Source: Octopus vulgaris
Lineage: Eukaryota
Assembly (NCBI GenBank): GCA_951406725.2
Contig: OX597842.1
Coordinates: 20,894,001 to 20,958,000, forward strand
Reading direction: 5' to 3'
DNA: 64,000 nt
Made by a program: the position numbers and the translations under genes. Every line of letters starts with the position of its first letter. Position 1 is the stretch's first letter. The notes beneath the pieces were generated by a model. That model made no database searches, was not told the origin of the DNA, and saw only the letters and a program-made list of their open reading frames with translations. Shown here piece by piece: positions 1-42,147 of the stretch.

Positions 1-640
1 AGGTACAGGAGAGTCAGCTTGACTATATGGAAATCGCTGGAATGCCTGATGCTCGTGCCTGAGTAACGACACACTGCATACAACACACACGTTGAAGTGT
101 TTCATCAACCACCTGAGAAAATAAGAGGTTTTGCGCGATGGGATGCTTTTAATTTATCGAGCCTCCTGCTATCCTAAACTCCTTGAGACGACTGGAAGAT
201 CACAAAATGTCTTAAGGAGTTGATGGCATGGGTTTACATGAGTCACAAGGACACCAAATCAAAATAGGTAGTCTTAGATGCAGGTACTGCTTCTCAGTCA
301 GTAGTGTTCATTTACAATCCATAACCTAGAAGAGAGTGAAAATTCTGGGAAAAGAGTTTTTAATGTAACCGGGGTGACATATAATCCATCAGTGAAGCCA
401 AGGAATCAGAAACTTGGTGCATGCCACCAAAGTGACAATGGGGTAAAATGTATAAAGCCCAGTATACTCATCATGAATACTCGTCTGATAAGGGTACACT
501 AGGCAAATCTGTGGTATTGAGCAGAATATATTTTCCAACCACCGAAATCTTTCGTTTGATACAAGGCCTTCCAGGAATTTCCAGATTTATATCACTGCGT
601 ATCTTTCTCACATTCATTCTACAGAGAAGAGTTTTCACTC

Positions 641-1652
641 TGTTGTGAACGACCGTACGTAAAGGAGTTGGTGACAGAAATGTCTCCTTTGAAACAACGC
701 ACGGTCGTCCCTAAGAAAATAAGAAAACCAGATATGTGGTATAAAAGAATATGAGTGCCAGTAAAGAATAAGGAGAAAAACACAACCGTTCTACTGCTTG
801 AGAGAAAGAAAGACTTTATTTACAGGATGTGTACATAGTGATAAGAGCGTGTGTGAGTGCTAGCAGAGTGTAGTGTCTGAGTGTGTGCACATGTGTCTGT
901 GTGTCCGTTGTAAGTTAAAAGAGTGAAACAACAATACAAAGCAAAGAAAGAATGTCCAGACACAAGATGGAGAATAAATACCAGTTCGTACAGGTACACA
1001 ATAGCAGTTCGCTCTGTGTCAAGGAAGTTGAGGCAAAGAGGAGAGCAGTTGGTATGCGTGTAGAAGTTGGGCGTCGATCCATTTGCCAGGTTACATCGGT
1101 ACAGAAGGTCTTGCCGGTCGTGCTGTGCTGTTAACCTTGGTGTGATTACACAAACAGCGTGTGAGCTAAACTCAAGCGAGTTGCTGTGTACGTACCGTTG
1201 AAGTCGACGGTGGTGATGGCGACGGTAGAGAACGGTGACGTTGAGATGAAGGCGACGGTGGTGGACACGCCCTGCATTGCTGGTGTATGTTGGCGTCGTC
1301 GCTGTCTGGAGCGGGAACATGGCTGGGTCGCTGGCTGTAGCAGGAACATGGCTGGGTCGCTGGAACTAGCTGGTCTGGTCGTCGATGGAACTGGCTTCTC
1401 TGGTGTGGTCAATGGTCAGAGACCAAAGACCCAGATTCACTGGATCACTGGGATTTTATAACATACTAGAGGCTCAAGAAGAAAACCCAAAAGACAGAGC
1501 CACATGATCTTATTGGAAGGTTCTGATTGGTTGGTTCACATATTGGCGCGAAATAAGTCAACAGACAAATTGTGCCAATGCCAACCAATCAGAGCAGTGG
1601 ACACAACAGCGTCGAAATAGCGGCCAAAACTTATCTGTTATCTGCTACGACA
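641..1652 (-). mobile_element. Solo-LTR-like element with Pol II promoter and poly(A) signal
   Basis: TGTCGTAG...TCACAACA termini on the minus strand. Five CCAAT/ATTGG boxes (1512-1589), E2F-like TTTCGCGCCAA (1543-1553), TATAAAA (1460-1454), AATAAA (820-815). No TSD found, so boundaries are uncertain. Confidence 0.5.
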
Positions 1653-2106
1653 TAATTTGTACTGCATATCTCAGAGAGTGCGGATGCATTTCACAAAACG
1701 CTATAACTCTTTCAGTCTTTCCCAGTAGCCAGTATGTTTCCTTGATGCAATTTCGTTTGTGTAGCTTCGTTGGATTGCTTCGAGTTTCGCCGTTATTTTA
1801 ATATTTATGTTGGTATAGTTGGGAGAGGTAGTTCAAACGTCTGAGAACGTATGCTCTCCAGATGACCACATTGAGAAATATATACACACACAAACACACA
1901 CACACACATACACACACATAATACAAATCACTGATGTAAACACCAAATTTTCATATTCGTAAACACTTTCACATTTGCAAATTCATAAGTGGAGAAAATC
2001 TGAGTTAGAGAAGGGCAATTTCAAGAAGTAAAAAACATAGGAAAGCATTAAATATTTAGAAATATACCGTCAAGTGAAGAGTATCAGCAAAACATATTCA
2101 ACTTAC

Positions 2107-2178
2107 AAAAAGTCTAAGCCGGTAAGATTCCTGAATGCTCCTTGCTCAATAGTCGAGATTCTGTTATTCTGTAGATAC
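2107..2178 (-). CDS. 72-bp single-LRR exon A: YLQNNRISTIEQGAFRNLTGLDF(L)
   Basis: Plus-strand acttac at 2101-2106 (= GTAAGT donor) and ct at 2179-2180 (= ttacAG acceptor). Exactly 72 nt, phase 2/2, typical-class LRR consensus. Confidence 0.93.
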
Positions 2179-2553
2179 CTGTAAGATAAAAGAGAACTCA
2201 TAAGAAATAACATAAAAGAGACCCGTTACAATATTTTTTACTATTATATCTGAGGGATAACAGGCAGGAAGATAAGAAAAGGAAGTCGAAGTTTTAGAAT
2301 TCGATGACGGATGTCACGATAATGATGTGTGAAGAACATGATTATAAAGGTGATGGTGAGTGATGACGAAGATTGATGATAATAACGATAACGCTGTTAA
2401 TTATACACTAGTTGGTATTGGTGACACTGTTGGTTGCTGAGCTGAGGATGCTGCGACTGTGGAGTATGATGATGATGTATCAGGTAAAATCTCATAAGAA
2501 GAGAAGGGGATGAGAGGAAGGAATGATGATGCAATATATAGCTATATGTATGG

Positions 2554-2557
<4 letters not shown>

Positions 2558-2638
<81 letters not shown>

Positions 2639-2652
2639 TATAGTATATATGC

Positions 2653-2689
<37 letters not shown>

Positions 2690-2761
2690 AAGGAAATTAT
2701 AATTGTTCCCTTTGAGGCTTTTGACGCCAACTACTTGATAAATTCTTATAAAGATTTTATG

Positions 2762-2855
<94 letters not shown>

Positions 2856-2860
2856 GCATA
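2558..2860. repeat. (TA)n microsatellites (others at ~8527-8765, 11228-11340, 26205-26320, 38434-38530)
   Basis: Direct reading. Confidence 0.95.
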
Positions 2861-3999
2861 TATATATGTATGTATGTAAGTACATATGTATGTAACTACA
2901 TATTTATGTTTGCGTCTTTGTTATTAAATACGTATGTTTTCTTCGATTACAAGATGTTCAGTTTGAAATACAAGTATTATACATGTGTGTTTATGTATAA
3001 ATATGTGTATATATACTATGTATTGCATGTATGAGTGTATATATATTTCTGCCTTTAAGACTTTATTTATATATATTTCCAAGACCCGTTAATTTTTCAC
3101 GGAAGTAATTTTAAGCCTATGCAATAATTTTTGAAATCTTTATTTATAAAATCGAAAGTGTAGACTGCGTTGTGTCTGCATGGAGAGATAGTTGCTCGTC
3201 TGCTATTCATTGGAAAACAAACGAGACTGTAATAAGAAGATTACTTAATGAACTTTATATGGGCACTTAATATATTTTACCTACAATTTTACGGATATAA
3301 TACAGAATACTCATAAAATGAACAGTCACTCTTATTTTTCCATATTTTGCTGTAAACAATAAACAAAAATAAACATCTCATACATATGATACAACATTTC
3401 GTAAAATTGTAAAAATTTGCCACGTCAATAAGCGTGAAAACTTTACGGGATTTCATTTATGCGCATGCGTTATGAGAGAGAGACACGTTGTATAAAACTT
3501 ATTTCAATTGAAAAGCATGCACGCTTTTCACTATCCAATGCAACCACCACTACCTCCACCACTTCCACCAACACAATCGTCATCAACTCTCTTCCTGTCC
3601 CTCTCTCCTCTCCTTCGACTCTGTCTATCTCCCTTCCTTCTTTGCCTAAGTTTACCTTCACCATCAGAACATTACATCTCTGCTAAAGTTATCCTTTCAA
3701 CTCTCCTCTCCGTACAACTAACTTTTAACCACGTTACTAAATATTACGTTGCCCTTATCTTATATCGTGGACGAAATTCCCTCTCCCTTTTACCTTCTCA
3801 CTCTTTTTCTTTGTCCCTTTTTCTCTCTCTCTCTCTCTCTCTCTTTCTATCTATCTATCTATCTATCTCTATCTCTTCACCTTATCCTCTTTCCTGTTTC
3901 CTTTTCCATTCGCTTCAACTACTCACGCGCAATTACATTCCCTCTGCCACACGTCCTGGATGCTCTTCTCTCCCTATTTTCCTTCCTCCCTCATTTTAA

Positions 4000-4006
4000 A
4001 ATAATG

Positions 4007-4074
<68 letters not shown>

Positions 4075-4230
4075 TGTGTACAGTGCTTAGGTGCACTACA
4101 ACTCATCTAAAGTGTATGTATAATCAGGTGTGGTTTCGGCGGATTTCGGAGAGCATGAGGGCCTTAAGGGATGCAGTGTCATGGCAGTCAACGACTGACG
4201 CAGGCAGTTTATTCCATGCTTCAGCAACTC
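4000..4230 (-). mobile_element. 3' tip of a CR1-group LINE with (TTA)n tail
   Basis: Minus frame RVAEAWNKLPASVV (CR1 ORF2 C-terminal motif), followed by a 3'UTR and a (TAA)n tract at 4000-4074. Confidence 0.7.
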
Positions 4231-5084
4231 TCCCCTTTCTTTCTCTCTCTTTCTCTCTAATTACATGAAAACGTTGCCGACACGCTAGGTAATGACATGA
4301 ACAATTTTTTGGTTAATTTTGCAAATTTACTCCTGTTCCAATGCAAAACTATAAATATCCTGATTTTGAAGAAGGATAAATTACATTACTTCTTGGACGT
4401 TCTAGGAAATGAATGTGGTCAACATTAATAAACTTTAATATTATAAATTCATTTGGATTCAAATTAACATTTATATTTATTTTTATGCAGTGTATATTCC
4501 ATGTGGTGTTGAAATAAGCATTATTAATGAATTAAACGTGATCAATTCTCAGTAAGGAAGAATATCACAAACACATTCATATAGAAAACGGGGATATATT
4601 AAAGTACACAAGTGAAGAATTTTTATATATGTGCATGAATCTGGGTATATATATATGTGTGTGAATGTATATACATAAGTATGTTTGTGTATATAGGTAT
4701 GTGTGTGAGTGTATGTGTGTTTGTGTGAACGTGTGTGTACATATATTTGTATATATTTATATTTGTGTGTATGTTTTTGTAAATTATGCAATCACGTATG
4801 TTTGCGTTTATATATGTTTCTAAGTTCCCTTTCAGTCGTTTTTTCGCCGCCATTCCCTGAAGGTGGGTCTAGTTGGCTCCCAAATAGGTGTTCACATCCT
4901 TCAGAAATGCTGACCGCATCCGATGGTCAGCCGCAATCGAAGCTATAATGGATATACACTCACAATTTAAACGCCCAAGTCTATAGACACAATGGACCGA
5001 TCGAACTTCTATGTTCGCCATTACCCATCATTGGCGCATTGTGTATATGTGTATAAAAATATATATATATATTTTGGATATACT

Positions 5085-5560
5085 TTGCATGTTTATATGT
5101 GCAAGGAAGGTCAGATCCATCTTTGATAAACTGATTCCTAGTGAACATATTTCAAAACTTAAGTTGAAGTATTACTTAGGCAAGAAAGGTTAGGCAACAA
5201 AGTGTTTTCTTAACCTATAGAAAAGGTAATGAAGTCTGGGAAGACGGTGTAATAATTAAACAAATAAGGAGAATGGTATTCCTGGTAAAAGGAGAACATG
5301 TCGAACATAAAAGCCATTAACAAACGGAAAGAAAGTTTCACGAAAATAAAAAAAGGAGCCACGAGAAATAACACCCTCATGGAAATATTGCATAAAATCT
5401 TTGAGGTACAAACATCAAAGCAATTTGAATCTAGACGTTCTTGAACCAGACAACGGATAATAAATGAACCATTGGGATTGAACCCTAAGGGTAATCGATA
5501 TTTAATATCAGAGCGGAGATCAATTCTCAAATGGGCAGAATATAGGGGAGACTGATGCAA
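5085..5560 (+). mobile_element. Degraded Gypsy/Ty3 pol C-terminus with purine-rich PPT-like tract
   Basis: ARKVRSIFDKLIP, WEDGVIIKQIRRMVFLVKG and MEILHKIFEV...RRS resemble the post-integrase region of K02A2.6-like Gypsy elements. Contains stops and frameshifts. Confidence 0.55.
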
Positions 5561-6611
5561 AAAGGGGACATTTCATGGAAGGATTCCGACCACCCCACAA
5601 GTGACATAAATGTGGACTGACTTATTGCTATAAATTAAAGCACTGAGCGATTAGCGTTTCGTGTTCCTAGCAGTTCAAGTGAGCTTTGATATGGAGCGTT
5701 GAGTCTCGTATAATAGTAATAGTAGTACGTTGCGTATATAGTTTCCTCCCCACCCCCACCCAGTGCTTAATCAATACAAGGATATACAAATAACCAAGTG
5801 GTAATCGCAAGCCTTAGTGTACAATTTGCCATATCAGGTCATCCTGGCAATTTTAAGTCCGGCATTTACCAATAACGCATTCTTCAGGGTGACATTTGGC
5901 AGCTCTTCTTATAAGAGATTCTGATATCCACAGTGAAGATGAGTCATCGGATTCCTATGAAAATAGATGAGATCAAAGGTACAGGAGAGTCAGCTTGACT
6001 ATATGGAAATCGCTGGAATGCCTCGTTGCCTGAGTAACGACACACTGCATACAACACACACGTTGAAGTGTTTCATCAACCACCTGAGAAAATAAGAGGT
6101 TTTGCGCGATGGGATGCTTTTAATTTATCGAGCCTCCTGCTATCCTAAACTCCTTGAGACGACTGGAAGATCACAAAATGTCTTAAGGAGTTGATGGCAT
6201 GGGTTTACATGAGTCACAAGGACACCAAATCAAAATAGGTAGTCTTAGATGCAGGTACTGCTTCTCAGTCAGTAGTGTTCATTTACAATCCATAACCTAG
6301 AAGAGAGTGAAAATTCTGGGAAAAGAGTTTTTAATGTAACCGGGGTGACATATAATCCATCAGTGAAGCCAAGGAATCAGAAACTTGGTGCATGCCACCA
6401 AAGTGACAATGGGGTAAAATGTATAAAGCCCAGTATACTCATCATGAATAATCGTCTGATAAGGGTACACTAGGCAAATCTGTGGTATTGAGCAGAATAT
6501 ATTTTCCAACCACCGAAATCTTTCGTTTGATACAAGGCCTTCCAGGAATTTCCAGATTTATATCACTGCGTATCTTTCTCACATTCATTCTACAGAGAAG
6601 AGTTTTCACTC

Positions 6612-7623
6612 TGTTGTGAACGACCGTACGTAAAGGAGTTGGTGACAGAAATGTCTCCTTTGAAACAACGCACGGTCGTCCCTAAGAAAATAAGAAAACC
6701 AGATATGTGGTATAAAAGAATATGAGTGCCAGTAAAGAATAAGGAGAAAAACACAACCGTTCTACTGCTTGAGAGAAAGAAAGACTTTATTTACAGGATG
6801 TGTACATAGTGATAAGAGCGTGTGTGAGTGCTAGCAGAGTGTAGTGTCTGAGTGTGTGCACATGTGTCTGTGTGTCCGTTGTAAGTTAAAAGAGTGAAAC
6901 AACAATACAAAGCAAAGAAAGAATGTCCAGACACAAGATGGAGAATAAATACCAGTTCGTACAGGTACACAATAGCAGTTCGCTCTGTGTCAAGGAAGTT
7001 GGGGCAAAGAGGAGAGCAGTTGGTATGCGTGTAGAAGTTGGGCGTCGATCCATTTGCCAGGTTACATCGGTACAGAAGGTCTTGCCGGTCGTGCTGTGCT
7101 GTTAACCTTGGTGTGATTACACAAACAGCGTGTGAGCTAAACTCAAGCGAGTTGCTGTGTACGTACCGTTGAAGTCGACGGTGGTGATGGCGACGGTAGA
7201 GAACGGTGACGTTGAGATGAAGGCGACGGTGGTGGACACGCCCTGCATTGCTGGTGTATGTTGGCGTCGTCGCTGTCTGGAGCGGGAACATGGCTGGGTC
7301 GCTGGCTGTAGCAGGAACATGGCTGGGTCGCTGGAACTAGCTGGTCTGGTCGTCGATGGAACTGGCTTCTCTGGTGTGGTCAATGGTCAGAGACCAAAGA
7401 CCCAGATTCACTGGATCACTGGGATTTTATAACATACTAGAGGCTCAAGAAGAAAACCCAAAAGACAGAGCCACATGATCTTATTGGAAGGTTCTGATTG
7501 GTTGGTTCACATATTGGCGCGAAATAAGTCAACAGACAAATTGTGCCAATGCCAACCAATCAGAGCAGTGGACACAACAGCGTCGAAATAGCGGCCAAAA
7601 CTTATCTGTTATCTGCTACGACA
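6612..7623 (-). mobile_element. Second copy of the solo-LTR-like element (duplicated with the unit)
   Basis: Nearly identical to 641-1652. Confidence 0.5.
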
Positions 7624-8076
7624 TAATTTGTACTGCATATCTCAGAGAGTGCGGATGCATTTCACAAAACGCTATAACTCTTTCAGTCTTTCCCAGTAGC
7701 CAGTATGTTTCCTTGATGCAATTTCGTTTGTGTAGCTTCGTTGGATTGCTTCGAGTTTCGCCGTTATTTTAATATTTATGTTGGTATAGTTGGGAGAGGT
7801 AGTTCAAACGTCTGAGAACGTATGCTCTCCAGATGACCACATTGAGAAATATATACACACACAAACACACACACACACATACACACACATAATACAAATC
7901 ACTGATGTAAACACCAAATTTTCATAATCGTAAACACTTTCACATTTGCAAATTCATAAGTGGAGAAAATCTGAGTTAGAGAAGGGCAAGTTCAAGAAGT
8001 AAAAACATAGGAAAGCATTAAATATTTAGAAATATACCGTCAAGTGAAGAGTATCAGCAAAACATATTCAACTTAC

Positions 8077-8148
8077 AATTCCTTTAAGCCGGAAAGATTC
8101 CTGAATGTTCCTTGCTCAAAAGTCGAGATTATGTTATTCCCTAGATTC
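8077..8148 (-). CDS. 72-bp single-LRR exon B: NLGNNIISTFEQGTFRNLSGLKE(L)
   Basis: acttac at 8071-8076, acceptor tttacAG at 8149-8150. 72 nt. Peptide is visible at the end of ORF 8073..8360. Confidence 0.93.
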
Positions 8149-8573
8149 CTGTAAATAAAAGAGAACTCATAAGAAATAACATAAAAGAGACCCGTTACAA
8201 TATTTTTTACTATTATATCTGAGGGATAACAGGCAGGAAGATAAGAAAAGGAAGTCGAAGTTTTAGAATTCGATGACGGATGCCACGATAATGATGTGTG
8301 AAGAACATGATTATAAAGGTGATGGTGAGTGATGACGAAGATTGATGATAATAACGACAACGCTGTTAATTATACACTGGTTGGTATTGGTGACACTGTT
8401 GGTTGCTGAGCTGAGGATGCTGCGACTGTGGAGTATGATGATGATGTATCAGGTAAAATCTCATAAGAAGAGAAGGGGATGAGAGGAAGGAATGATGATG
8501 CAATATATAGCTATATGTATGGATATGTATATATATATATACATATATATATATATACGTAAGTATATATGCG

Positions 8574-8778
<205 letters not shown>

Positions 8779-9502
8779 GTATGTAAGTACATATGTATGT
8801 AACTACATATTTATGTGTGTGCCTCTTTGTTATTAAATACATATGATTTCTTCGATTACAAGATGTTCAGTTTGAAATACAAGTATTATTCATGTGTGTT
8901 TATGTATAAATATGTGTATATATACTATGAATTGCACGTATGTGTGTATATATATTTCTACCTTTAAGACTTTATTTATATATATTTCCAGGACCCGTTA
9001 ATTTTTCACGGAGGTAATTTTAAGCCTATGCAGTAATTTTTGAAATCTTTATTTATAAAATCGAAAGTGTAGACTGCGTTGTGTCTGCATGGAGAGATAG
9101 TTGCTCGTCTGCTATTCATTGGAAAACAAACGAGACTGTAATAAGATGATTACTTAATGAACTTTATATGGGCACTTAATATATTTTACCTACAATTTTA
9201 CGGATATAATACAGAATACTCATAAAATGAACAGTCACTCTTATTTTTCCATATTTTGCTATAAACAATAAACAAAAATAAACATCTCATACATATGATA
9301 CAACATTTCGTAAAATTGCAAAAAAATGCCACGTACATAAACGTGAAAACTTCACGGAATTTCATTTATGCGCATGCGTTATGAAAGAGAGACGTTCTAT
9401 AAAACCGTATTTCAATTGAAATGCATGCACGCTTTTCACTATCCAATGCAACCACCACTACCTCCACCACTTCCACCAACACCATCGTCATCAACTCTCT
9501 TC

Positions 9503-9975
9503 CAGAAAATGCATTTAGGGTCAAATCTATTTCGAAGAACGCAAATTGAAGGTTTTGATCAGCAAGCTTCGATCTTGCACCGCCAGTATGAAATAGTCAT
9601 ACTCTGCTTTCAGTTCTGGGCTCCTCAGTCACTGATGGGTTGTTGCTTGGTCTACATAAGCATATCGGCTTCGAATTTTATAGTGTTCACGAAGAGGCTT
9701 CTGGCTCCACCGATCCTCAATTTGCTTATGCCCGTTCTCTTTTGCGGTCTGCTTGATTCGTTTGGCGTATATGGTAGCACTGGTTTCAGGTTGTTCATAT
9801 AAATCAGGATTAATGGCAAGTTCCCTTCCAAATTTGCAAGTTTCCTTAGCAATAAAATGTGTTTTTCCTGCTTTCGAGTTTGCACACAAGCTGCAGCATC
9901 CAGCCTTCTGTACTGCATGAGGATTTGTTCATTGCTATTGTCCTACCTTCATCCTTCCTCTTCCCCCATTATTTC
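9503..9975 (-). mobile_element. Dong/R4-clade non-LTR retrotransposon fragment
   Basis: KQIEDRWSQKPL...VDQATTHQ motif, adjacent to the (TAT)n tract at 9980-10058. Confidence 0.75.
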
Positions 9976-11346: not shown

Positions 11347-12039
11347 TTATTATATATTTATTGTGTGTCCATTGTTCTTGCAGGCCATAAGTCATTTTAT
11401 CGCTACCTCTTTATTTATTTATAAATAAATTTAGATATTTTCCCCTCCGTTGAAATGCAAGACTCTATATAACACGGAATTCCAACAATAAATTTTGTTG
11501 CATTTAAACCTTTCTTTAAATGCACTTGGTTAAACTAATGATTGAGTATTATGATTTCGTTAGTTTTAATATTAACATTGATATTCATGAAATCTACGTC
11601 CCATGTAAATTTAAATTGAACTTGATTAAAATTTTGAATGTTGCAGCATAAATTCCAATTTCTGTTTGTTTAACCGTGAAAAGAGCTATAAAGAATCAAT
11701 TAGAATTAGGAAGGTAATAACTTCTCCATGTGAACAAGAAGAAATATATGTGAATTTATATATAAGTAAATGAAGAGGTAGGGGAAAAAGATTTGAGCTC
11801 AGGAACACAGATACACACACACACACAAAAATGAATTATATACATATAAATTTATATATATTTCTACACGGAAACACACTCTAGAGGGAATAAAGGGGCT
11901 GCCCAATACACTGCAATTGGCGCTGCCACCGACGGGATTGACTCTAGTCCGCTTCTCCAACGGTAAACACGAAGATTGTTTTCATTTTTGCATGCTTTAA
12001 TGACAATGTCCGACATATGGGTGAATGAGCGTAGGTGCA

Positions 12040-12800
12040 ACGTGGCAACGGAAAACAATTTGGTGTCGATGAAACAGGTGATATTCTAAGCAGATATTCG
12101 CGGCCTTTAGGGAACACTACGTGCATCAGTTTGTGGAGGTTAGTGGTCCATTGACTATGAAGGTCTTAACCGTCAACGTAGACGGCTTGCGGCAACACTC
12201 GAATGAAACTACGCCGTTCTACAAATGGTGGAAAATTGTTGCGGTATTCGAGATGCCGGGTTAGAGGTTGCCATGGCTTGAGGATCAGCCTTACGCAGTT
12301 TAAAAATATTTGGCATAAATAGCAGTGATTGTAATGGCAGGTGTCTACAACAAAGGAAAGTAGAACGAGATGATTCTTAGCCCTGATAAAAGGTGGGGTC
12401 ACGAAAATGTCGAGAAAGAACTCGAAAAAAATGTATTTGATAATAATTTGAGACCTGAAATTAGGCTAAATGCCGAAGATTCCATATCAAAATCATCTAA
12501 GCACAACAGGTTCCTGCTTGCACAGTACATCACAGACAGAATGAGTAACAAATGCGTTTCCAATGAAATCCTAATTTTGTGTTAGTCAAATGCCAACTGT
12601 TGGCGCCTGCACTGAAGGAAGCCGGATTCGATCCTGTTTCCAGGTGCTGGATCGCAGTAACCTACAACAAATTTTGCTTCTTGGAACCATTCAAATGAAC
12701 TGAAACTAAGAAGACCTGGCGAACAGGCTATAAGCAGAGAGGTAGTGTGGTGGAGAATACAGAACGGTTAAAGAGAGAGAGATAATACGATCAAACTCTC
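12040..12800 (+). mobile_element. Ancient, internally deleted Tx1/L1-clade ORF2 relic in the repeat unit (also ~19400-20160, ~39230-39990; more diverged at ~27880-28260 and ~30150-30620)
   Basis: Best-preserved copies read ALKEAGFGPVSRGWIAVTY, DNNLRPEIRLNAE and DSKQIFAAFRKHY, matching VLRAAGFGPVFRGWIAALY, DNFRPITLLNAD and EPSKMCEAFQRHF of the element at 33187-34521. Confidence 0.75.
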
Positions 12801-14349
12801 ATCGAAGCCTTAAAATTCCATTTAAAATGACGGTGAAGGTGGAGTGAGAGAGAAATCCACACCACCCAAGTAAATGTAGTGAAAAGTGGGGGAATACTAA
12901 ACTGCACCTGTGAGCTGAGTCATACCGAGGAAGATGGAGTACTTGTAGTCGTAGTCTTGACCTAACTTTCTTTACAACATCTGCCATAATGGCATGGACG
13001 ATCCTAAAATTACTTGAGTAGTTTATGACTGGGAGTCACATGAGATTCAGCTTCGTCAGTCAACAAAATTGGTCTTAGAAGCAGGTATTCCTCAGTCAGT
13101 AGCGGTCACTTATTATCCATCATCTAGAAGACAGTGAAAACCTGGGGAAGGTGTTTAAATTTAACTGGAGTGACACATAATCTAATTGTGAAAGCAACAA
13201 GGATTCTAAAAGGTGACTATCTACAGTGGACATGTGATGTCTCCCGGTAATTTTAAGAGCTAGAGTTAAAAATAGAGCATCCGCCATGGATCATTTAGCA
13301 GTTCTGCGTACATGACATATCAATATCCTCATTGAAGAGAAGGAAGCGATTTCTTGTGAAAAAGGCTGAGCAACGTAGTCCTGAGTGGAAAATACAACTT
13401 AACGCACTTCATAAGCAGCATCAGAGAAAGCTTGGTTCTCTGTGATTAGATGTTGTGTTAACGAGACTTTCGGTACGAGGGCAATACATCACGGAATTAG
13501 AGTGCGGTGGAGAATTTCTTGTCTTTACAGGTATGTGATGAAAAACCTGATTTGGGTAGCACCACAACAACTCACTGTGACAAGTGGCAAGCAAGGTTTA
13601 GGAAGTTACTGAAAAAGAAAGGTGTGTATGTCTTACTACTTTCTTACTAATAAACAGTCTATGCTTTTCTTGTTTGTCATCTAACCTTATGGTTACTCTT
13701 ATTTTACGGGAGTGGCAGAAGCTTCTGCGCACTCTTATATCCTACGACGGACGTATAGTTTATTTATATCTGCCTCTGGGAGATGCATGTAGTGTATTGT
13801 GAGAGAATTGCTTTGTTTTGATTCGGTGATACACATCTCATTCGTGGATCATTTTATGGTATCAAAGCTGCAGCCTAGAGGACCTATATATAAGGTATTC
13901 ATTGCATCAGTCTTTTCTTCAAATGGAAATAGGTTTTTGTGGTGGCGGCTCATAAGAATGCGGTGTGACGCGAGAAATCATATCAGCACATTCAATAATA
14001 GAAGAGACTAGCCATAACAGTTTTAATATATCGACGGAATTAAATGCAGGAAGATAAGGAAAAAATGCGGTGTTTGGGATTTCATGAAGGAGATGACCAT
14101 AATGATGTTCAAAGAATACGAGTTTCTTTCAAATCTTAAAATTAAATGCACAGTATTTTACGTAGGATATGGGCGGTTCCCATTAGCGCTATCTTTTGAG
14201 TTGCTGCCATTTTGGGGTTTCCTAGTATCTGAGATAGGTATGATTCAGGCTTTTTGCTATAATTCCTCGGGCAACTATGACAACAGGCATTGTTTTACTT
14301 CCACATTTTGCTAATTTCTATTTCAACATCTTTACACTTGCTCAGTTTT

Positions 14350-15600
14350 GTAGGTTTTGACAGATACTTTTATGTCGATTGGGACAGTTTTAAATGAGGA
14401 GGCATGGTTTTTTCCTGTAGTTTTTCTATATAATGCCTGGTCTATTCGCATCTATCTTTCTGTCACTTCGATTGGCAAGGTTCTAGAGGTTAAGATACGA
14501 TCATCTTCAGAAACTGGAGTGTGTTCGGGTCCCCAACCGATTGTATCATGTGGCACGTCTATGTTTTTGCAAATTAACCAGGGAATATGATGTGCTGCTC
14601 AATCATGCCTGTTGAGATATTCTGTATGCACAAGAAGACTGCACATGGAGACAACATGATCAATGGTTTCATTTTGTTGTTTACATACAAGACATGCTGG
14701 GTGACTGCCTTTCTTTAATATGGTAGTTTCTTGTAGGTAGGCCTTGATCTTCAGCTGCTATATTAAATCCGTCTGTGTCTGAGTTTAAGCCAGAAAACAC
14801 TAACCATTGATGGGTAATGGCTTTATCCACATCGGTACTATTAGCTCTCTTTGGGTATTTGCCATTGAGCTGTTTTCTTTGTCATTTATCTGTAAGAATA
14901 TCTAAGTCAGATTCTTTGCATGTACTTTCATTCGCTTAGCTTTTTCTGTGCTTGTTTCTAGTACGTCTAATTCTGGGATTTGTTGTATTTGGAATTCACT
15001 TAGATATTCCTTTGCATGTTTTGTTATTTTGTATGACACTTTCTTGTTTCCGTGCTTTGAGACAAGTTTTAACATCCAGTCATGAGAGTTGTTTAGGTAG
15101 GTGTTTCGGTCAATCGTTAATTCCATTGTTAATTCCAGTTGTAAATGTTACGGCCACCCTCTTTTCTTGGCAGGTAAAATCGTTCTACATCTGCCTTAGT
15201 GTGGTGCATTCTATGCATTGTCAACAATTTTCGTATTTTTCTGTTAAGATTACATATTTCAATAATTGACCAGTTAATGATATTGAAACTGTAAGCCACG
15301 ACTTGTACAGCATAGGTACTGATCACTTCGATCCTGTTTCTTGCATTCAGTTCTGTCTTGAATATTGCTTTTACCCTGCGATAATAATCCATTCGGATCC
15401 TTTCCCTCATCACTGAATATTTGATCATGTCCACTTCAAATACCGATAAGTACATGTATCTCTCCGCTGGTTCTAATTCCTTTATGACATTCTGCGTGAT
15501 GTTTCTGTCGTTTTCCTTTGATAAATGTAGCTTTTGCTCATTTATCGAGGTAAAATTGCAACGTGATATCATCAAAGAATTGTTTAGTATCTCCTGCCCG
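14350..15600 (-). mobile_element. Dong/R4 relic within the unit (paralogues ~21720-22930, ~40925-41835, piece at 30625-30772)
   Basis: YYRRVKAIFKTELNARNRIEVI...KIRKLLTMHRMHHTKADVERFYLPRKEGGR. Confidence 0.85.
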
Positions 15601-15932
15601 TGATGAATTGTTTAATATCTCCTGCCCAAGACGAAACATTAAAGGACTATATATTTATCCACACATTTCAAGAAAAGATATACATATGACTATATACGCA
15701 CTTTTCACAATATACCAAACAGTGATGTAGAACATAAAAACTTATGTAAACACACATCGTCACACACAAACACACTCAACTCACACACACTCACATACAT
15801 ATATATATAGAGAGAGAGACAATGTGAGGTAGAGAAGGGCAAAAGAAGGTTCAGAAAGAAAGATGGAAAGATATTAAATTTGAGGAAATATATACTCAGG
15901 AAGAAAGTATGAACAAGACTGGTTCAACTTAC

Positions 15933-16004
15933 ACTTGAAATAAGTATGGAAGATTTGCAAACGATCCATTTTCAATTTTCACGATTGCATTATGGGATAG
16001 ATAT
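15933..16004 (-). CDS. 72-bp single-LRR exon C: YLSHNAIVKIENGSFANLPYLFQ(V)
   Basis: acttac at 15927-15932, acceptor tctttcAG at 16005-16006. 72 nt, LRR consensus. Confidence 0.92.
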
Positions 16005-16725
16005 CTGAAAGATAATTCATGAAGAAAAAACATAGAAGTGATTAGTCACATATTTCAAATATTATGTCCAATGAATTAGCTGCTGAAATAGAAGAAAAAT
16101 AAGTAGAAGTGAGACAATTTGGTGAAGACGATTATGAAAATGATAAGTGAAGATTATGAAGATAATGATGAAGATGTATGGCATTGTGTTTAGTGATGAT
16201 GAAAGCGATAATTATTATGATGAGGGAATTAATGATAACGGATTTGGTAGTGATGAAGTTGTTTCGGTCTGCTGGCATTGCTCTGTGGTTTCAGATTATG
16301 ACTGATAAGGATGATGATGATGGTGATGATGACGATGATCATGATGACGATGAAGGTGACGACCACTACGAGGACGCAGACGATGATTATGATGACAATA
16401 TTTACTGATGGTGCTCTTAATATTTGGAATGATGATGAGGAGGAGGATGACGCTGATATACAAAGTTGAAACTATAACAAAAGAGAAGGATGAGAATAGG
16501 AATAAAATTAACGACGAGCAGTTATTGATAAATGAGATAAAAAGGGTAAAGAAGACTAAACTAGAACTGGAGACATGTATCTATCTATCTATCTATCTGT
16601 CTATCTATCTACCTACATATCTATCTATCTATCACTTTATCAATATATCTATCAATCGCCAGACAGATACGTAAACACATACACACGTATACCAATATAA
16701 ATATATGTATATATTTGTGTGTGTG

Positions 16726-16768
<43 letters not shown>

Positions 16769-17478
16769 AACACGTTTATACATGTACTTTTTTCAGTAAT
16801 TTGACAATGGCCATGCTAGAGCCTTTATTCGAACCAATCGAGCCCAGCATTTATTTGTTGAAAGTCTAGCACTTATTCTCTCGGTGTCTTTTGCCAAACC
16901 ACTAAGTTACAGTGTGTGTAACACCAACATTGCTTATTAGGTGATCTTGAGGGAACACAAATATAAATCTGTCTATATTTGTGTGTCTATGCTTATGCTA
17001 GGACTACCACTAACCACTTTCCAACACCCAGACCACAAAACATCATCTACACACCCATACACAATCATTCGCACACCCACACACTATAGACGCACACAGC
17101 TACGCACGCATACATCCACACATCATAGTCATTAGCCCCTATCAACTCACACACACACACACACACACACACACTTACACATTCTTACATACACAACGCA
17201 CGAGTACTGTTGCTTTGGGATCTCCAGTTGTTTATTATCTCCCCGACTCTCTATCTCTCCCGTCAAGCTATGCTTTTCCTAACTAGTAGCCCTGCTTGAT
17301 CCCTAAATCGACAAGATTTTTAATCACTTTTTGTTCATGTTCTCCTTTCTCTTTCTGTTGAGGAGCATAGGCTCGAAAGTAAAAGAATTTCTCTTTTCCC
17401 GAGCGTTGAATCTAACACCTGTTTTCGACTTTTAGTTTCCCGTAAATTTAATCTACCGACACACAAACACACACAGAC

Positions 17479-17515
<37 letters not shown>

Positions 17516-18081
17516 CTATATATTAAAAGGATGTGTGTTATAATACTATTCCACAACCATAGCAACAATCCAACATACCTGTATCATCAGCTACCCACGG
17601 TTACCATTATGGTTTCGAAACCTGGTCACTACCCTTCAATCCGGCGGTGTGAACAGCACTAAAATAAGTGTTGTTTGGGAACAAAGAAATCAAAGAAACC
17701 ACAAATTTCAACCACATTTACCCTATGTATAACCGTATCAATAAATAATTCAAATAAGTAAATTACAACTCCTAAATACGTAACTAAACAGCGTGAAATC
17801 TTTTAAATCATACAAAAATTATAATCTCTACCGTCTTCCGTAGATATGAAAGTAAAGCCTTAATGACCACAATAGGGCAATCAGTCGATATATAGGAGGA
17901 TAAGACACCAACTTCCACAGCATACCTCGAGACAGGTGTGATCGGACCGAAAGTTCTCATAGTGTGAGAGAGTCCGGAAGTGAATAGTATTAAATTTACG
18001 TCTAATATAGGATAAAACTTTCGAAAAATGTTATCAATGGCCAGCACGTTAAAAAAATGCCTTTAAAGGTTAAATTTACAA

Positions 18082-18656
18082 ACAACTTATAAACAAGGAC
18101 AAAAGAAAAATAATCCAATGCTAAATATGCCGAAATATTACTTAATCGTCAATAACCATATAATTTATCACTATAAGCTCGCGTCTCGAAAGCAAGCCGA
18201 TAGAATTTTCGAAAACAAATTTCGTAATTATCGGATCGATCCCCATTTCTGAGTTAATTCATTTAGAATTTTCTCTTCATTAGTGATAAGAGAATTCTCT
18301 AAGAGAATTTTCAGTCCGTTCACACGTGTCTCGGGGTATGATGCAGAATTTCTATTTTGGATATATTTGGGGTACTTAAGTGTGCTCATGACTTAGCGTT
18401 TACTTCTTCCATAGGTACAAGTAAGAATCTCATTTATTTTCTTATCGTATTTATCGCTGATGACGAGAAAATTCTAAATGAATTAACTCAGAAATGAGGA
18501 TCGATCCGATAATAACGAAATCCTTTTAGAAACTTCTATCAGCTTGCTTTCGAGACGCGTGCTTATAGTGATAAATTATATGGTTATTGATGATTAAGTC
18601 TATTTCGGCATATTTGGCATTGAATTCTTTTTCTTTTGCCCTTGTTTATAAGTTGT
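18082..18656. mobile_element. MITE / foldback element with ~200-bp imperfect inverted arms (copy with shortened left arm at ~37915-38435)
   Basis: acaacttataaacaag...gaattttctc on the left is the reverse complement of gagaaaattc...cttgtttataagttgt on the right. Confidence 0.8.
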
Positions 18657-18665
18657 ATATAAATA

Positions 18666-18703
<38 letters not shown>

Positions 18704-21700
18704 CATGCTTGTGTGTCAATTTTTCTTGCTGACCTTAAGTCATTTTATCGCTACCTCTTTATTTATTTATAAATAAATTTAAATATTTTCCCCTCCGTTG
18801 AAATGCAAATCTCTTTATAACACGGAATTCCAACTATAAATTTTGTTGCATTTAAACCGTTCTTTAAATGCACTTCTTTTAAAACTAATGATAGAGTATT
18901 ATGATTTCGTTAGTCTTAATATTAACATTGATATTCATGAAATCTACGTCCCATGGAAATTTAAATTGAACTTGATGAAAATTTTGAATGTTGCAGCATA
19001 AATTCCAATTTCTGTTTGTTTAACCGTGAAAAGAGCTATAAAGAATCAATTAGGATTAGGAAGGTAATAACTTTTCCATATGAACAAGAAGAAATATATG
19101 TGAATTTATATATGACTAAATGAAGAGGTAGGGAAAAAGATTTAAGCTCAGGAACACAGATACACACACACACACAAATATGAATTATATACATATAAAT
19201 TTATATATATTTCTACACAGAAACACACTCTAGAGGGAATAAAGGGGCTACCCAATACACTGCAAGTGGCGCTGCCACCGACGAGATTGACTCTTGTCCG
19301 CTTCTCCAACGGTAAACATGAGGATTGTTTTCATTTTTGCATGCTTTAATGACAATGTCCGACATATGGGCGAATGAGCGTAGGTGCAACGTGGCAACGG
19401 AAAACAATTTGGTGTTGATGAATCAGGTGAGATGCGTTCTCTTCGATTCTAAGCAGATATTTGCGGCGTTTAGGAAACACTACGTGCATCAGTTTGTTGA
19501 GGTTAGTGGTCCATTGACAATGAAGGTCTTAACCGTCAACGTAGACGGCTTGCGGCAACACTCGAATGAAACTACGCCGTTCTACAAATGGTGGAAAATT
19601 GTTGCGGTATTCGAGATGCCGTGTTAGAATTCGCCATGGCTTGAGGATCAGCCTTACGCAGTTTAAAATTATTTGCCATACATAGCAGTGAGTGCAATGG
19701 CAGGTGTATACAACAAAGGGAAGAAGAACGAGATGATTTTTAGCCCTGATAAAAGGTGGGGGTCACGGCAATGTTGAGAAAGAACTCGAAAAAAATGTAT
19801 TTGATAATAATTTGAGACCTGTAATTAGGCTAAATGCCGAAGATTCCATATCAAAATCATCTAAGCACAACAGGTTCCTGCTTGCACAGAACATCACAGA
19901 CAGAATGAGTAACAAATGCGTTTCCAATGAAATCCTAATTTTGTGTTAGTCAAATGCCAACTGTTGGCGCCTGCACTGAAGGAAGCCGAAATTCGGTCCT
20001 GTTTCCAGAGGCTGGATCGCAGTAACCTACAACAAATTTTGCTTGTTGGAACCATTCAAATCAACTGGAACTAAGAATACCTGGCGAACAGGCTATAAGC
20101 AGAGAGGTAGTGTGGTGGCGAATACAGAACGGTTGAAGAGAGAGAGATAATACGATCAAACTCTCATCGAAGCCTTAAAATTCCATTTAAAATGACGGTG
20201 AGGGTGGAGTGAGAGAGAAATCCACACCACCCAAGTGAATGTAGTGATAAGGGGGTGAATACTAAACTGCATCTGTAAGCTGAATCATACCGAGGAAGAT
20301 GGAGTACTTGTAGTCGTAGTCTTGACCTAACTTTCTTTACAACATCTGCCATAATGGCATGGACGATCCTAAAATTACCTCAGTAGTTTATGATTGGGAG
20401 TCACATGAGTTTCAGCTTCGTCAGTCAACAATATTAGCCTCAGAAGCAGGTATTCCTTAGTCAGTAGCGGTCACTTACTATCCATCATCTAGAAGACACT
20501 GAATAACCTGGGGATGGTGTTTAAATTTAACCGCAGTGACACATAATCTATTTGTGAAAGCAACAAGGATTCTGAAAGGCGACTATCTACAGTGGACACG
20601 TGATGTCTCCCAGTAATTTTAAGACCTGGAGTTTAAAATAGAGCATCCACCATGGATCATTTGGCAGTTCTCCGTACATGATATTTCAATATCCTCATTG
20701 AAGAGAAGGAAGCGATTTCCTGTGAAAAAGGCTGAGCAACGTAGTCCTGAGTGGAAAATAAAATTTGAAGCACTTCATAAGCAGCCTCAGAGAAATCTTG
20801 GTTGTCTGTGATTAGATGTCGCGTTAGCGAGGCTTCCGGTACGAGGGTAATACATCACGGAATTGGAGTGCGGTGGAGAATTTCTTGTCTTTACAGGTAT
20901 GTGATGAAAAACCTGATTTGGGTAGCACCACAACACCTCACTGTGACAAGTGGCAAGAAATGTTTAGAAAGATACTGAAAAAGAAAGGTGTGTATGTCTT
21001 CCAACTTTCATACTAATAGAGAGTCTTTGCTTTTCTTTTGTTTGTCATCTAACCTTATGGTTACTCTTATTTTACGAGAGTGGCAGAAGCTTTTGCGCAC
21101 TCTTACATCCTCACGTGGGACGTATAGTTTATTTATATCTGCCTCTGGGAGATGCATGTAGTGTATTGTGAGAGAATTGCTTTGTTTTGATTCGATGATA
21201 TACATCTCATTCGTGGATCATTTTATGGTATCAAAGCTGCAGCCTAGAGGACCTATATATAAGGTATTCATTGCATCAGTCTTTTCTTCAAATGGAAATA
21301 GGTTTTTGTGGTGGCGGCTCATAAGAATGCGGTGTTTCGCGAGAAATCATATCAGCACATTCAATAATAGAAGAGACTAGCCATAACAGTTTTAATATAT
21401 CGACGGAATTAAATGCAGGAAGATACGGAAAAAAATGCGGTGTTTGGGGATTTCATGAAGGAGATGACCATAATGATGTTCAAAGGATATGAGTTTGTTT
21501 TAAAACTTAAAATTAAATACACAGTATTTTACGTAGGATATGGGCGGTTCCGATTAGCGCTATCTTTTGAGTTGCTGCCATTTTGGGGTTTCCTAGTATC
21601 TGAGATAGGTAGGATTCAGGCCTTTTGCTATAATTCCGCGGGCAACTATGACAACAGGCATTGTTTTTCTTCCACATTTTGATAATTTCTATTTCAAGAT

Positions 21701-23235
21701 CTTTACACTTGCTCAGTTTTGTAGGTTTTGACAGATACTTTTATGTCGATTGGGACAGTTTTAAATGACGAGGCATGGTTTTTTCCTGTAGTTTTTCTAT
21801 ATAATGCCTGGTCTATTCGCATCTATCTTTCTGTCACTTTGAATGGCGAAGTTCTAGAGGATAAAATGCGATCATCTTCAAGAACTGGAGTGTGTTCGTG
21901 TCCCCAACAGATTGTATCATGTGGCACCTCTAAGTTTTTGCAAATTAACCAGTGAATATGATGTGCTGCTCAATCATGCCTGTTGAGATATTCTGTATGC
22001 ACAAGAAGACTGCACATGGAGACAACATTATCAATGGTTTCATTTTGTTGTTTACATACAAGACATGCTGGGTGACTGCCGTTCTTTAATATGGTAGTTT
22101 CTTGTAGGTATAACTTGATCTTCAGCTGCTATATTAAATCCGTCTGTGTCTGATTTTAAGCTAGAAAACACTAACCATTGATGGGTAATGGCTTTATCCA
22201 CATCGGCACCGTTAGCTCTCTTTGGGTATTTGCCATTGAGATGTTTTCTTTGACATTTATCTGTAAGAATATCTAAGTCAGATTCTTTGCATGTACTTTC
22301 ATTCGCTTAGCTTTTTCTGTGCTTGTTTTTAGTACGTCTAACTCTGGGATTTGTTGTATTTGGAATTCACTTAGATATTCCTTTGCATGTTTTGTTACTT
22401 TGTATGACACTTTCTTCTTTCCGTTCTTTGAGATAAGTTTTAACATCCAGTCATGAGAGTTGTTTTGGTAGGTGTTTCGGTCAATCGTTAATTCCATTCT
22501 TAATTCCAATTGTAAATGTTACGGCCACCCTCTTTTCTTTGTAGGCAAAATTGTTCTACATCTGCTTTAGGGTGGTGCATTCTACGCATTGTCAACAATT
22601 TTCGTATTTTTCTGTCAAGATTACATATTACTCCTGCTATAGCAAAAGTACTGATCACTTCGATCCTGTTTCTTGCATTCAGCTCTGTCTTGAATATTGC
22701 TTTTACCCTGCGATAATATTCTATTCTGATCCTTTCCCTCATCACTGAATATTTGATCATGTCCACTTCAAATACCGATAAGTACATGTATCTCTCCGCT
22801 GGTTCTAATTCCTTTATGACATTCTGCGGGATGTTTCTGTCGTTTTTCCTTTGATAAATGTAGCTTTTGCTCATTTATCGAGGTAAAATTACAACGTGAT
22901 ATAATCACAGAATTGTTTAATATCTCCTGCCCAAGCGAAACATTGAAGGACTATATATTTATCCACACATTTCAGGCATAAATATACATATGACTATATA
23001 CGCACATTTCACAATATACCAAACAGTGATGTAGAGCACAAAGACTTATGTAAACGCACATCGTCACATACAAACACGCTCAACTCACACACACTCACAT
23101 ACATACATATATATAGAGAGAGATAATGTGAGAAAGAGAAGGGCAAACGAAGGTTAAGAAAGAAAGATGGGAAGATATTAAATTTGAGGAAATATATACT
23201 CAGAATATAGTATGAACAAGACTGGTTCAACTTAC

Positions 23236-23307
23236 AAATATTGTAAGTTCGGAAGATTTGCAAACGATCCATTTTCAATTTTCACGATTGCATTATTGGA
23301 TAGATAT
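23236..23307 (-). CDS. 72-bp single-LRR exon D: YLSNNAIVKIENGSFANLPNLQY(L)
   Basis: acttac at 23230-23235, acceptor tctttcAG at 23308-23309. 72 nt. Confidence 0.93.
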
Positions 23308-24051
23308 CTGAAAGATAATTCATGAAGAAAAAACATAGAAGTGATTAGTCATATATTTCAAATATTATGTCCAATGAATTAGCTGCTGAAATAGAAGAAA
23401 AATAAGTAGAAGTGAGACAATTTGGTGAAGACGATTATGAAAATGATAAGTGAAGATTATGAAGATAATGATGAAGATGTATGGCATTGTGTTAAGTGAT
23501 GATGAAAGCGATAATTATTATGATGAGGGCATTGCCGGTGACGGATTTGGTAGTGATGAAGTTGTTTCGGTCTGCTGGCTTTGCATGTGTTGTTCCATAT
23601 TATGACTGATAAGAATGATGATAATTGTGATGATGACGATGATCATAATGACGATGATGGTGATGACCACTACGAGGACGCAGATGATGATTATGATGAC
23701 AATATTTACTGATGGTGCTCTTAATATTTGGAATGATGATGATGAGGAGGAGGATGACGCTGATATGCAAAGTTGAAACTATAACAAAAGAGAAGGATGA
23801 GAATAGGAATAAAATTAACGACGAGCAGTTATTGATAAATGAGATTAAAAGGGTAAAGAAGACTAAGCTAGAACTGGCGATATGTATCTATCTATCTCTC
23901 TATCTATCTATCTATCTATCTATCTATTCATCTATCTATCTACCTACCTATCTATCTCTATCAATCGCCAGACAGATAGGTAAACACATACACACATATA
24001 CAATATATATATATGTATATATTTGTGTGTGTCCATATATATATATATATA

Positions 24052-27060: not shown

Positions 27061-27132
27061 AACTTTTTTAAATTGGTGAGACCTTCGAACGATCCATGTT
27101 CAATAATCGCGATTTTATTATTGGCAAGATTT
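27061..27132 (-). CDS. 72-bp single-LRR exon E: NLANNKIAIIEHGSFEGLTNLKK(L)
   Basis: atttac at 27055-27060 (GTAAAT donor), acceptor cttacAG at 27133-27134. 72 nt, LRR consensus. Confidence 0.9.
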
Positions 27133-28870: not shown

Positions 28871-28910
28871 AAAGCCTTTAATCTGGATAGATTTTCGAAT
28901 GATCCTACTT
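28871..28910 (-). pseudogene. Truncated LRR exon F (3' half only: VGSFENLSRLKA(L)); 5' half replaced by a CR1-group LINE
   Basis: gcttac donor at 28865-28870, with the same attaaatatttagaaatata intron motif as next to exon A. Sequence turns into LINE RT at ~28905. No acceptor at the 72-nt position. Confidence 0.8.
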
Positions 28911-30122
28911 TCAAAATTGGCAAATGTTGGAATCCGTGCAACATTTCTGCACTGGATTAAGTATTTCCTAGCGAATAGAACACAACATATTGTAGTCGAT
29001 GGAGTCCACTCAAGCTCAGCAAAAGTCACCACACTCTCTTGGGCCCGCTCCTCTTTATAATTTACAGAAATGACCTTTCCAGTGTCGTACATTACTGCAA
29101 CGTGAAAATATTTGCTGATGACACTAAGCTCCAGCAAATCATCAATGAAGTAGCAAACCGAACTCAACTCCAGTCTTATCTATATGCTGTGAGACAATGG
29201 GCAGACAAAAACAAAATTCAACTGAACGAGGGAAATTTTGAGCTGATGCATTTTGGAAGAAAGTCCACACTAAAGCAGCCATATTCTCTTCCATCAGGGG
29301 AACCGCTCACAGCCTCTAACAATATCAGAGACCTGGGCGTAATTGTTGATGACAATCTCAGTTGGAGTGCCCACTTCAACAATTAGGTCGATATAGCTCG
29401 TAGGATGATCTCCTGGATCTTAAGAACCTTCCGGTCCAGGGAACAAGGTGTCATCATACCACTTTTCTCCTTTGTACGGCCACACTCGAATACTGCAGCC
29501 CACTGTGGTCTCCCCATACAAGAAAAAACATCTCAAAGATTGAATCACCCCAGAAGGCATCCACTAAACGAATTGAAGGCATGACTGCTCTCGATTACTT
29601 GGACCGCCTTAAATCCTTAAAACTCTACTCTCTCCAGTGTCGCCGTGAGCGGTACATCATTTGTACGATGTGGAGAATATACCGCCAACTTTGCCCAAAC
29701 GAGCTGAGCATTACTTTCAAGGTTATTCCAAGGCTGGGTCCACAGGCCATACGTCCCCTGCCCAACTCAGGATCACAGCATATAGGTTCACTGCAACATA
29801 ATTTCTTTTTCCTCAACAGGCCCTACCCTGTTTAACATTGTGCCGGAAGAGATCAAAGAGGAAAAGGATCCCATCACCTTTAAACGGAGTCTGGACAGAT
29901 TTCTTCAAGGAATACCGAATAAGCCACCCATACCTGGATACAACTCACTCAACAAAAACTCACTAATTTAATGGACCATAAATAAAACTTGACTTAAACA
30001 GGATTTAGATAATCCTATTAAGTGGTGCCATTAAGTTAGACATGGCCTGGACCAATCTTTGGTCGAAACATATCTAAGTTTAACTAAGTTTATGTATGTA
30101 TGTATGTATGTATGTATGTATG

Positions 30123-41500: not shown

Positions 41501-42147
41501 TCAATAATTGATTAGTTAATGATATTGAAACTGTAAGTCACGCCTGGTATAGCAAAAGTACTGATCACTTCGATCCTGTTTCTTGCATTCAGCTCTGTCT
41601 TAAATATTGCTTTTACCCTGCGATAATAATCTATTCTGATCCTTTCCCTCATCACTGAATATTTGATCATGTCCACTTCAAATACCGATAAGTACATGTA
41701 TCTCTCCGCTGGTTCTAATTCCTTTATGACATTCTGCGGGATGTTCCTGTCGTTTTTCCTTTGATAAATGTAGCTTTTGCTCATTTATCGAGGTCAAATT
41801 GCAACGTGATATCATCAAAGAATTGTTTAGTATCTCCCGCCCAAGACGAAACATTAAAGGACTATATATTTATCCACATATTTCAGGCATAAATATACAT
41901 ATGACTATACACGCACTTTTCACAATATACCAAACAGTGATGTAGAACATAAAGACTTATGTAAACACACATCGTCACACATAAACACACTCAACTCACA
42001 CACACTCACATACATATATAGAGAGAGAGAGAGATAATGTGAGTTATGGAAGGGAAAAAGAAGGTTAAGAAAGAAAGATGGGAAGATATTAAATTTGAGG
42101 AAATATATACTCAGGAATATAGTATGAACAAGACTGGTTCAACTTAC

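Follow-up and report, generated by a model that had tools for sequence, protein, structure and literature searches.

The window analysed here is a stretch of 64,000 nucleotides (nt) from Octopus vulgaris (C29:20,894,001-20,958,000 of a 2.8-Gb genome; C28 and C29 are the contig labels used throughout). It overlaps a 147-kb octopus adhesion G-protein-coupled receptor (GPCR) gene that lies on the minus strand and ends at C29:20,793,208; two leucine-rich-repeat (LRR) exons of this gene, A and B, are the subject of this report. In order, the gene comprises a first coding exon, 20 hits to the LRR profile, a last LRR exon of 69 nt, a C-cap, a Cys-rich segment, GAIN/GPS and a 7tm_2 domain. The 20 hits consist of 18 intact 72-nt phase 2 exons, one of 70 nt and one atypical exon; with the 69-nt exon there are 21 LRR-type exons, which together with the C-cap, the Cys-rich segment and a SEA-like beta-alpha segment (a label that is our own reading of a low-confidence part of the fold model) form a long ectodomain of the adhesion type.

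The receptor class is evident from several matches. The 7tm_2 (secretin-class) hit in the exon at C29:20796728-20797303 lies above the cut-off (E 3e-10), the GPS motif CSCNHLTSFAILM occurs at residue 865 of the locus model, and the Pfam GPS domain was found in all four relatives searched. The family profile matched the ADGRG2 and ADGRG6 structures with E-values of 6e-87 and 5e-82 over profile positions 608-1152. About 50 related seven-transmembrane (7TM) exons are present genome-wide (E below 1e-23), six of them on C29 at 74-100% identity, and adhesion GPCRs of O. bimaculoides are 59-79% similar, a figure of similarity alone. In the fold model the x3-L-x5 positions of each repeat fall on a beta strand, with a predicted local distance difference test (pLDDT) score of 75-97 over most of the LRR arm; the mean pLDDT is 49 and the arm alone is confident. 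A Foldseek search with this model retrieved generic LRR proteins, with no hint of a ligand. The public model CAI9743641.1 maps to the locus and is open through the downstream body of the gene; it begins at unit U4 of the array described below, and leaves out the first coding exon, A and B, as well as eight other cassette hits that are upstream or internal.

Exons A and B both have AG/GT ends and phase 2 introns (Table 1), and A matches LRR_8 with E 2e-4, which for a lone repeat is under the curated cut-off. A first-pass annotation, made from the letters of the window, had listed 12 substitutions between them, none of them silent, and alignment reproduces these 12, all within 2109-2177, together with the eight codon pairs given (tat/aat, cag/ggg, aga/ata, att/ttt, gca/aca, acc/tcc, gac/aag and ttt/gaa). 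They amount to eight residue changes, or 11.75 nonsynonymous and 0.25 synonymous changes by path averaging, with no purely silent codon. The absence of silent changes is true of this pair and not a general pattern, since other pairs in the array carry them; for 12 changes it has p = 0.046 by chance alone, which is weak on its own. The adjoining intron had been credited with about four substitutions and one small indel over 2.1 kb, a count that comes close: 1-2106 against 5977-8076 gives six substitutions (two beside a 5-nt indel) and a 1-nt indel. On the other side, the 352 nt at 2179-2530 differ between the A and B copies by three substitutions and a 1-nt indel. The contrast of 12/72 in the exon with 9/2,458 in these near flanks is highly significant (Fisher p = 2.6e-14); farther upstream the B copy differs from the A copy at 33/842 sites (3.9%).

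A and B belong to an array of six tandem units of 5.86-5.97 kb, each with one LRR exon, and a partial older unit, U7, has flanks 9-13% diverged. The exon of unit U3 is 70 nt long in this assembly because of two deletions. Over whole introns the greater divergence of the exons persists after proper alignment: the five whole introns differ at 14-31 of ~5,180 unmasked sites (0.27-0.60%), as against 17.1% for the exons. Across the 15 pairs of the six units, divergence is 0.171 in the exon and 0.009-0.047 in the flank bins, and even within 150 nt of the exon it is 3.0-3.7% in the assembly, so that the peak is confined to the exon. The introns retain 43 variable sites and differ in length. They also contain an old dispersed repeat that reaches at most ~80% identity (over 1 kb) with its copies on other contigs and 98-100% between the six units, which argues that the identity of the introns is not due to a function of the intron body.

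The exon changes are concentrated on one face of the repeat. In the numbering LxxLxLxxNxI we took x2, x3, x5, x7, x8 and x10 as concave from established LRR geometry, an assignment that agrees with the strand positions of the fold model and with the available part of PMC3341825. The six concave codons make up 18 of the 72 nt and receive nine of the 12 A/B changes (p = 4e-4). For the six intact exons of the array, nonsynonymous differences per site (pN) are 0.448 at concave and 0.136 at other codons, with synonymous differences per site (pS) of 0.152, while the framework residues L6, N9, I11, F19 and L22 are invariant. For the family as a whole we used 69 of 75 profile hits, five being dropped as not clean 72-nt exons and one for lack of a flank; of 177 pairs with both flanks less than 10% diverged, 23 non-overlapping ones were chosen lowest-flank first, a choice that biases flank divergence downward. 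In the 15 of these from the gene and its two closest paralogues, concave pN is 0.333, other pN 0.067, pS 0.143 and flank divergence 0.042, with concave pN above pS (p = 2e-6) and other pN below it (p = 1e-3); the figures hold when the array is left out (13 pairs). The remaining eight pairs, from two more distant paralogues, served as a control and gave 0.028 for the exon and 0.026 for the flank, so not all LRR exons behave in this way. Diversifying selection, which the first-pass annotation had offered as one explanation, is thus supported by the concave pile-up and by its recurrence across paralogues.

Selection on new mutations alone does not explain the contrast, since silent sites in the array differ at 15% and introns at 0.4%. 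The array pS of 0.15 is ~35 times the intron divergence (~0.4%), and hence the introns are younger than the array exons they flank; if the exons changed at the intron rate, one would expect 0.13 silent variable sites in them, whereas at least four are seen (P = 1e-5). This points to homogenised introns, a process that the first-pass annotation had not named, and homogenisation, not only recent duplication, would then have made the introns alike. Signals of recombination between units are present in both compartments: the four-gamete test failed for 27 of 66 informative site pairs in the introns and 15 of 28 in the exons. The edge units differ in their outer flanks by 1.9-3.9% from the inner units, for which the figure is 0.0-0.7%. 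In unit U4 the exon still sits in an older island that reaches ~100 nt upstream and ~40 nt downstream of it; the 5′ flank of this unit has five alleles in common with U7, and its exon shares silent changes with that of U6. Conversion from other cassettes, the second explanation put forward earlier, is supported within the array, where the exons are a patchwork, but not for donors outside it. For either half of A or B, none of the 63 other 72-nt exons compared was closer than array members, and a closer outside donor was absent for 11 of the 12 exon halves, the 3′ half of U6 being six differences from an exon of another subfamily and nine from its own.

Collapse of reads in the assembly was checked in Logan contigs of three runs (X1, X3 and X4, from three samples and three studies) over 1930-2520. 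One X1 contig equals A letter for letter over 2081-2168, which includes 62 of the 72 exon bases, and four further X1 contigs carry the letters of U4, U5, U6 and U7 by our own matching of the tables to the assembly. The intron at 2181-2483 forms one contig with one differing letter in X1, and likewise a single sequence in X3 and X4; in X1 and X3 the variants of the exon form distinct contigs, and the X4 contigs, which do not cover 2090-2169, are uninformative there. The diverged flanks of U4 and U7 type were resolved into contigs of their own, so divergence in the introns at the level of the exon would have shown, though rare variants would not. The private letters of B are absent among the X1 contig matches listed (~80% of the run), and B is known from the assembly alone. 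An extra base of A at 2030 is missing from all covering contigs and the two deletions of U3 are not among the contig indels; these are probably single-base errors in the assembly. At 2112 and 2123 every covering X3 contig has letters other than those of A, which hints weakly at different exon sets in different animals. Separately, at 1930-2018 and 2208-2316 the X1 contigs of U7-type flank have a depth of 130-150 as compared to 29.5 for the U7-type exon contig; this may reflect unassembled U7-type units in that sample, although depth is not copy number.

We consider it likely, at roughly two chances in three, that ordinary recombination homogenises the introns while diversifying selection acts on the predicted ligand-binding face, producing a divergence peak of the opsin type rather than one made by targeted mutation. 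Each tandem 5.9-kb unit of exon and intron would add one LRR to the outer arm of the receptor. Unequal crossing-over and gene conversion between units would keep the introns near-identical, selection would stop the copying over the exon and favour new residues on the predicted ligand-binding face, and short conversion tracts may reshuffle exon halves. Since all cassettes have 72 nt and phase 2, the reading frame would survive the gain, loss or predicted skipping of a unit. The concave-face variation suggests putative recognition of fast-changing ligands; for microbial or other non-self surfaces we see about an even chance, and cell-identity partners are a less favoured candidate.

Several points weigh against this interpretation. 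The introns were compared within one genome, and the standard demonstration of concerted evolution is one across species; the Logan contigs lose rare variants and so bound intron divergence roughly. The pN and pS values are uncorrected counts, not codon models. With A and B left out of the public model, their splicing is predicted from sequence; a search of sequencing runs listed no RNA sample with the sequence, an outcome that is neutral as to expression. The first coding exon has one base more than its paralogue near 46395, leading to a stop at 46383-46381 in this assembly, and together with the 70-nt U3 this means that the allele may be broken or mis-assembled. Moreover, dispersed paralogues also have a pS (0.149) above their flank divergence (0.057; 147 non-independent pairs), for which tandem homogenisation alone does not account; this excess suggests exon-level patchwork exchange or constraint on the near-exon flank.

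That last excess also fits a process directed at the exon, germline or somatic, in which short tracts from donor cassettes or exon-specific mutation create the diversity. The patchwork of the exons agrees with it, as do the affinity of the U6 3′ half to another subfamily, the close limits of the U4 island around its exon and, weakly, the different exon variants of X1 and X3. We nevertheless judge it improbable: closer outside donors are lacking for nearly all exon halves, the exons, with their normal splice sites, belong to one continuous gene, and the changes track concave codons, for which selection on ordinary conversion accounts. Somewhat less probable again is a very recent origin of the six units followed by extreme positive selection on point mutations, with no homogenisation at all. 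The A/B pair by itself would suit such a history, with a pS of 0.016 near the near-flank divergence of 0.010 and transversions as nine of its 12 changes; the array as a whole does not, given its mean pS of 0.152 against 0.003-0.006 in the introns, the silent changes that U4 and U6 hold in common, the four-gamete failures in introns and exons and the more diverged flanks at the array edges.

An artefact of assembly or polishing, whereby multi-mapping short reads flatten the introns and uniquely mapping exons escape, ranks lower still, even though identity peaks in the middle of the intron and drops near unique anchors and the single-base indels, such as that at 2030, hint at consensus errors. 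Next to the exon, in the zone of anchored reads, divergence stays far below that of the exon itself; the introns keep variable sites and distinct lengths, the three samples yield one near-invariant intron contig with U4- and U7-type flanks apart, and dispersed paralogues with a flank divergence of 2-8% show the excess as well. An artefact could therefore shave the 0.4% intron figure but not create the contrast. Least probable of all is a pseudogene with drifting exons, to which the frameshift in the first coding exon, the 70-nt U3 and the atypical exon might be ascribed: its introns would drift equally, all but two of the 20 LRR exon hits are intact, pN outside the concave codons (0.067) is significantly below pS, and the downstream body is open.

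Adhesion GPCRs are usually seen as conserved mechanosensing or adhesion receptors. A young octopus clade in which the ligand face evolves like that of an immune receptor offers a concrete and testable candidate for variable recognition in this group of molluscs, the cephalopods. The six-unit array, in which 72 nt at 17% lie next to 5.8 kb of neutral DNA at 0.4%, allows conversion to be separated cleanly from selection. As the public model drops A, B and eight more cassette hits, selection at the level of sites would have been missed before.

Among known systems, the variable lymphocyte receptors (VLRs) of lampreys are built of 24-residue LRR modules that vary on the concave face, and somatic assembly places these modules, taken from flanking cassettes, in an incomplete gene. 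The octopus modules likewise have 24 residues and vary on that face, but they are spliceable AG/GT exons that lie between the N-cap and C-cap exons of one uninterrupted gene encoding a 7TM body, and not non-exon cassettes flanking an incomplete germline gene. Among shorter octopus proteins (nine hits in 258 candidates) only one O. sinensis fragment came up, and its repeats are of subfamilies other than that of A and B. The papers that follow are cited from their available parts. Concave-face variation is described as a mark of VLRs, PGIP and the algal ROCOs (PMC3341825). The brown-algal ROCO genes, for which an immune role is proposed, resemble the present gene in their 72-nt phase 2 single-LRR exons, concave-face selection and inactivated exons (PMC3341825, PMC11378527). 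They encode cytosolic GTPases, with alternative splicing demonstrated and inverted intronic exons; here the product is a GPCR with a GAIN-7TM body lacking a ROC-COR GTPase domain, and none of the 20 LRR hits is inverted. Near-identical introns of several kb are not described in those parts of the ROCO papers. Tetrahymena LRR genes likewise have tandem phase 2 LRR exons of uniform size that spread in recent waves with their introns, but the exons are of 90 bp, the introns are short and the host is a ciliate with no GPCR involved (PMC6564038). The primate red and green opsins share homogenised introns and a selected exon as the divergence peak (PMC3924837), although they are two whole genes with two fixed functions and here there are six exon units in one gene with many variable residues. 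The exon-centred peak, low-divergence introns and recombination between copies that mark the opsin case are all found in the octopus array, in a single genome.

The gene family itself has been described as an octopus-specific expansion of adhesion GPCRs (group 3) with GPS and adhesion 7TM domains, LRRs in 5 of 22 members, tandem clusters and branch-level positive selection (PMC6408891), and the present gene, a candidate member, agrees with it in domains, LRRs and clustering. The study detected no selected sites, and its available part does not describe exon cassettes, repeat-number variation or intron homogenisation. It reports expression in the nerve cord, suckers and skin, and in the gills of another species (PMC6408891), sites compatible with both non-self recognition and cell-identity signalling. 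The family, one-LRR-per-exon arrays under selection and intron homogenisation around a selected exon are thus each known, and their combination was not found in print; our literature search, which excluded subscription journals and supplements, returned nothing on octopus GPCRs with hypervariable LRR cassettes. A bolder possibility, which we hold doubtful, is that octopuses inherit a large set of variable LRR receptors on an adhesion-GPCR chassis, whose arms would be rebuilt between individuals by unit gain, loss, conversion and in-frame skipping, amounting to GPCR-based immune or self/non-self recognition comparable to the VLRs and algal ROCOs.

Table 1. Features of the window; positions are counted from its first base.
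Feature	Position	Strand	Remarks
Start of intron after A	1-2106	-	units U3-U6 and partial older U7 lie past the window start
Old dispersed repeat within intron	632-1718	.	second copy ~5,971 nt further on
LRR exon A (YLQNNRISTIEQGAFRNLTGLDF)	2107-2178	-	72 nt; unit 2 of the six-unit array; letter-for-letter contig over 2081-2168
Intron between B and A	2179-8076	-	5,898 nt; 0.29-0.60% from the other four whole introns, simple repeats masked
LRR exon B (NLGNNIISTFEQGTFRNLSGLKE)	8077-8148	-	72 nt; unit 1, array edge; assembly alone
Flank upstream of B, including the end of the repeat unit	8149-9503	-	near part identical to that of A; far part 3.9% diverged
LRR exon, other subfamily (YLSHNAIVKIENGSFANLPYLFQ)	15933-16004	-	72 nt
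LRR exon (YLSNNAIVKIENGSFANLPNLQY)	23236-23307	-	72 nt
LRR exon (NLANNKIAIIEHGSFEGLTNLKK)	27061-27132	-	72 nt
Atypical or decayed LRR-like exon	28871-28946	-	76 nt if read from the nearest AG; from the following one upstream, 81 nt and open
First LRR exon (DLSNNTIVKIEDGSFANLPNLRG)	42148-42219	-	72 nt
First coding exon	46327-46538	-	ATG 46518; signal-peptide-like stretch and LRR N-cap

The atypical exon has two similar copies in the neighbouring paralogue. Comparison of 46327-46518 (minus strand) with the paralogues at C29:21,305,182 and 21,711,159 shows a near-identical signal-peptide part and an LRR N-cap that differs in clusters; the CxC cysteines are missing in the gene and its closest paralogue and kept in the third. 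Another paralogue, at C29:18.80-18.83 Mb, has 19 LRR exons in multi-exon blocks that are no more diverged than their flanks, and the few changes present are mostly nonsynonymous. Related genes with the same C-cap exon lie at C28:5.639-5.692 Mb and C28:21.205-21.245 Mb (30 and 26 LRR exon hits); for the former no GAIN/7TM body was matched in the 28 kb beyond the C-cap, which may indicate a secreted form or a long intron. Judged by eye, the C-cap exon (56 residues) and one LRR exon of the paralogue at C29:21,371,589-21,382,464 are identical in an O. sinensis protein, which departs from the paralogue at five of 23 residues in the next LRR exon.

Elsewhere in the window, a second set of units of ~7 kb, built around 'NAIVKIENGSF' exons and 91-95% identical, occupies 11363-23600 and 38548-44085, with one copy displaced by ~19 kb. 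Open frames at ~32240-35060 and at C29:20,865,793-20,867,958, in introns of the LRR region, are reverse-transcriptase-like, and we take them, from their motifs, to be retroelements. A tandem repeat with a period of ~76 nt, its copies 93-97% identical, extends over 60909-61835.

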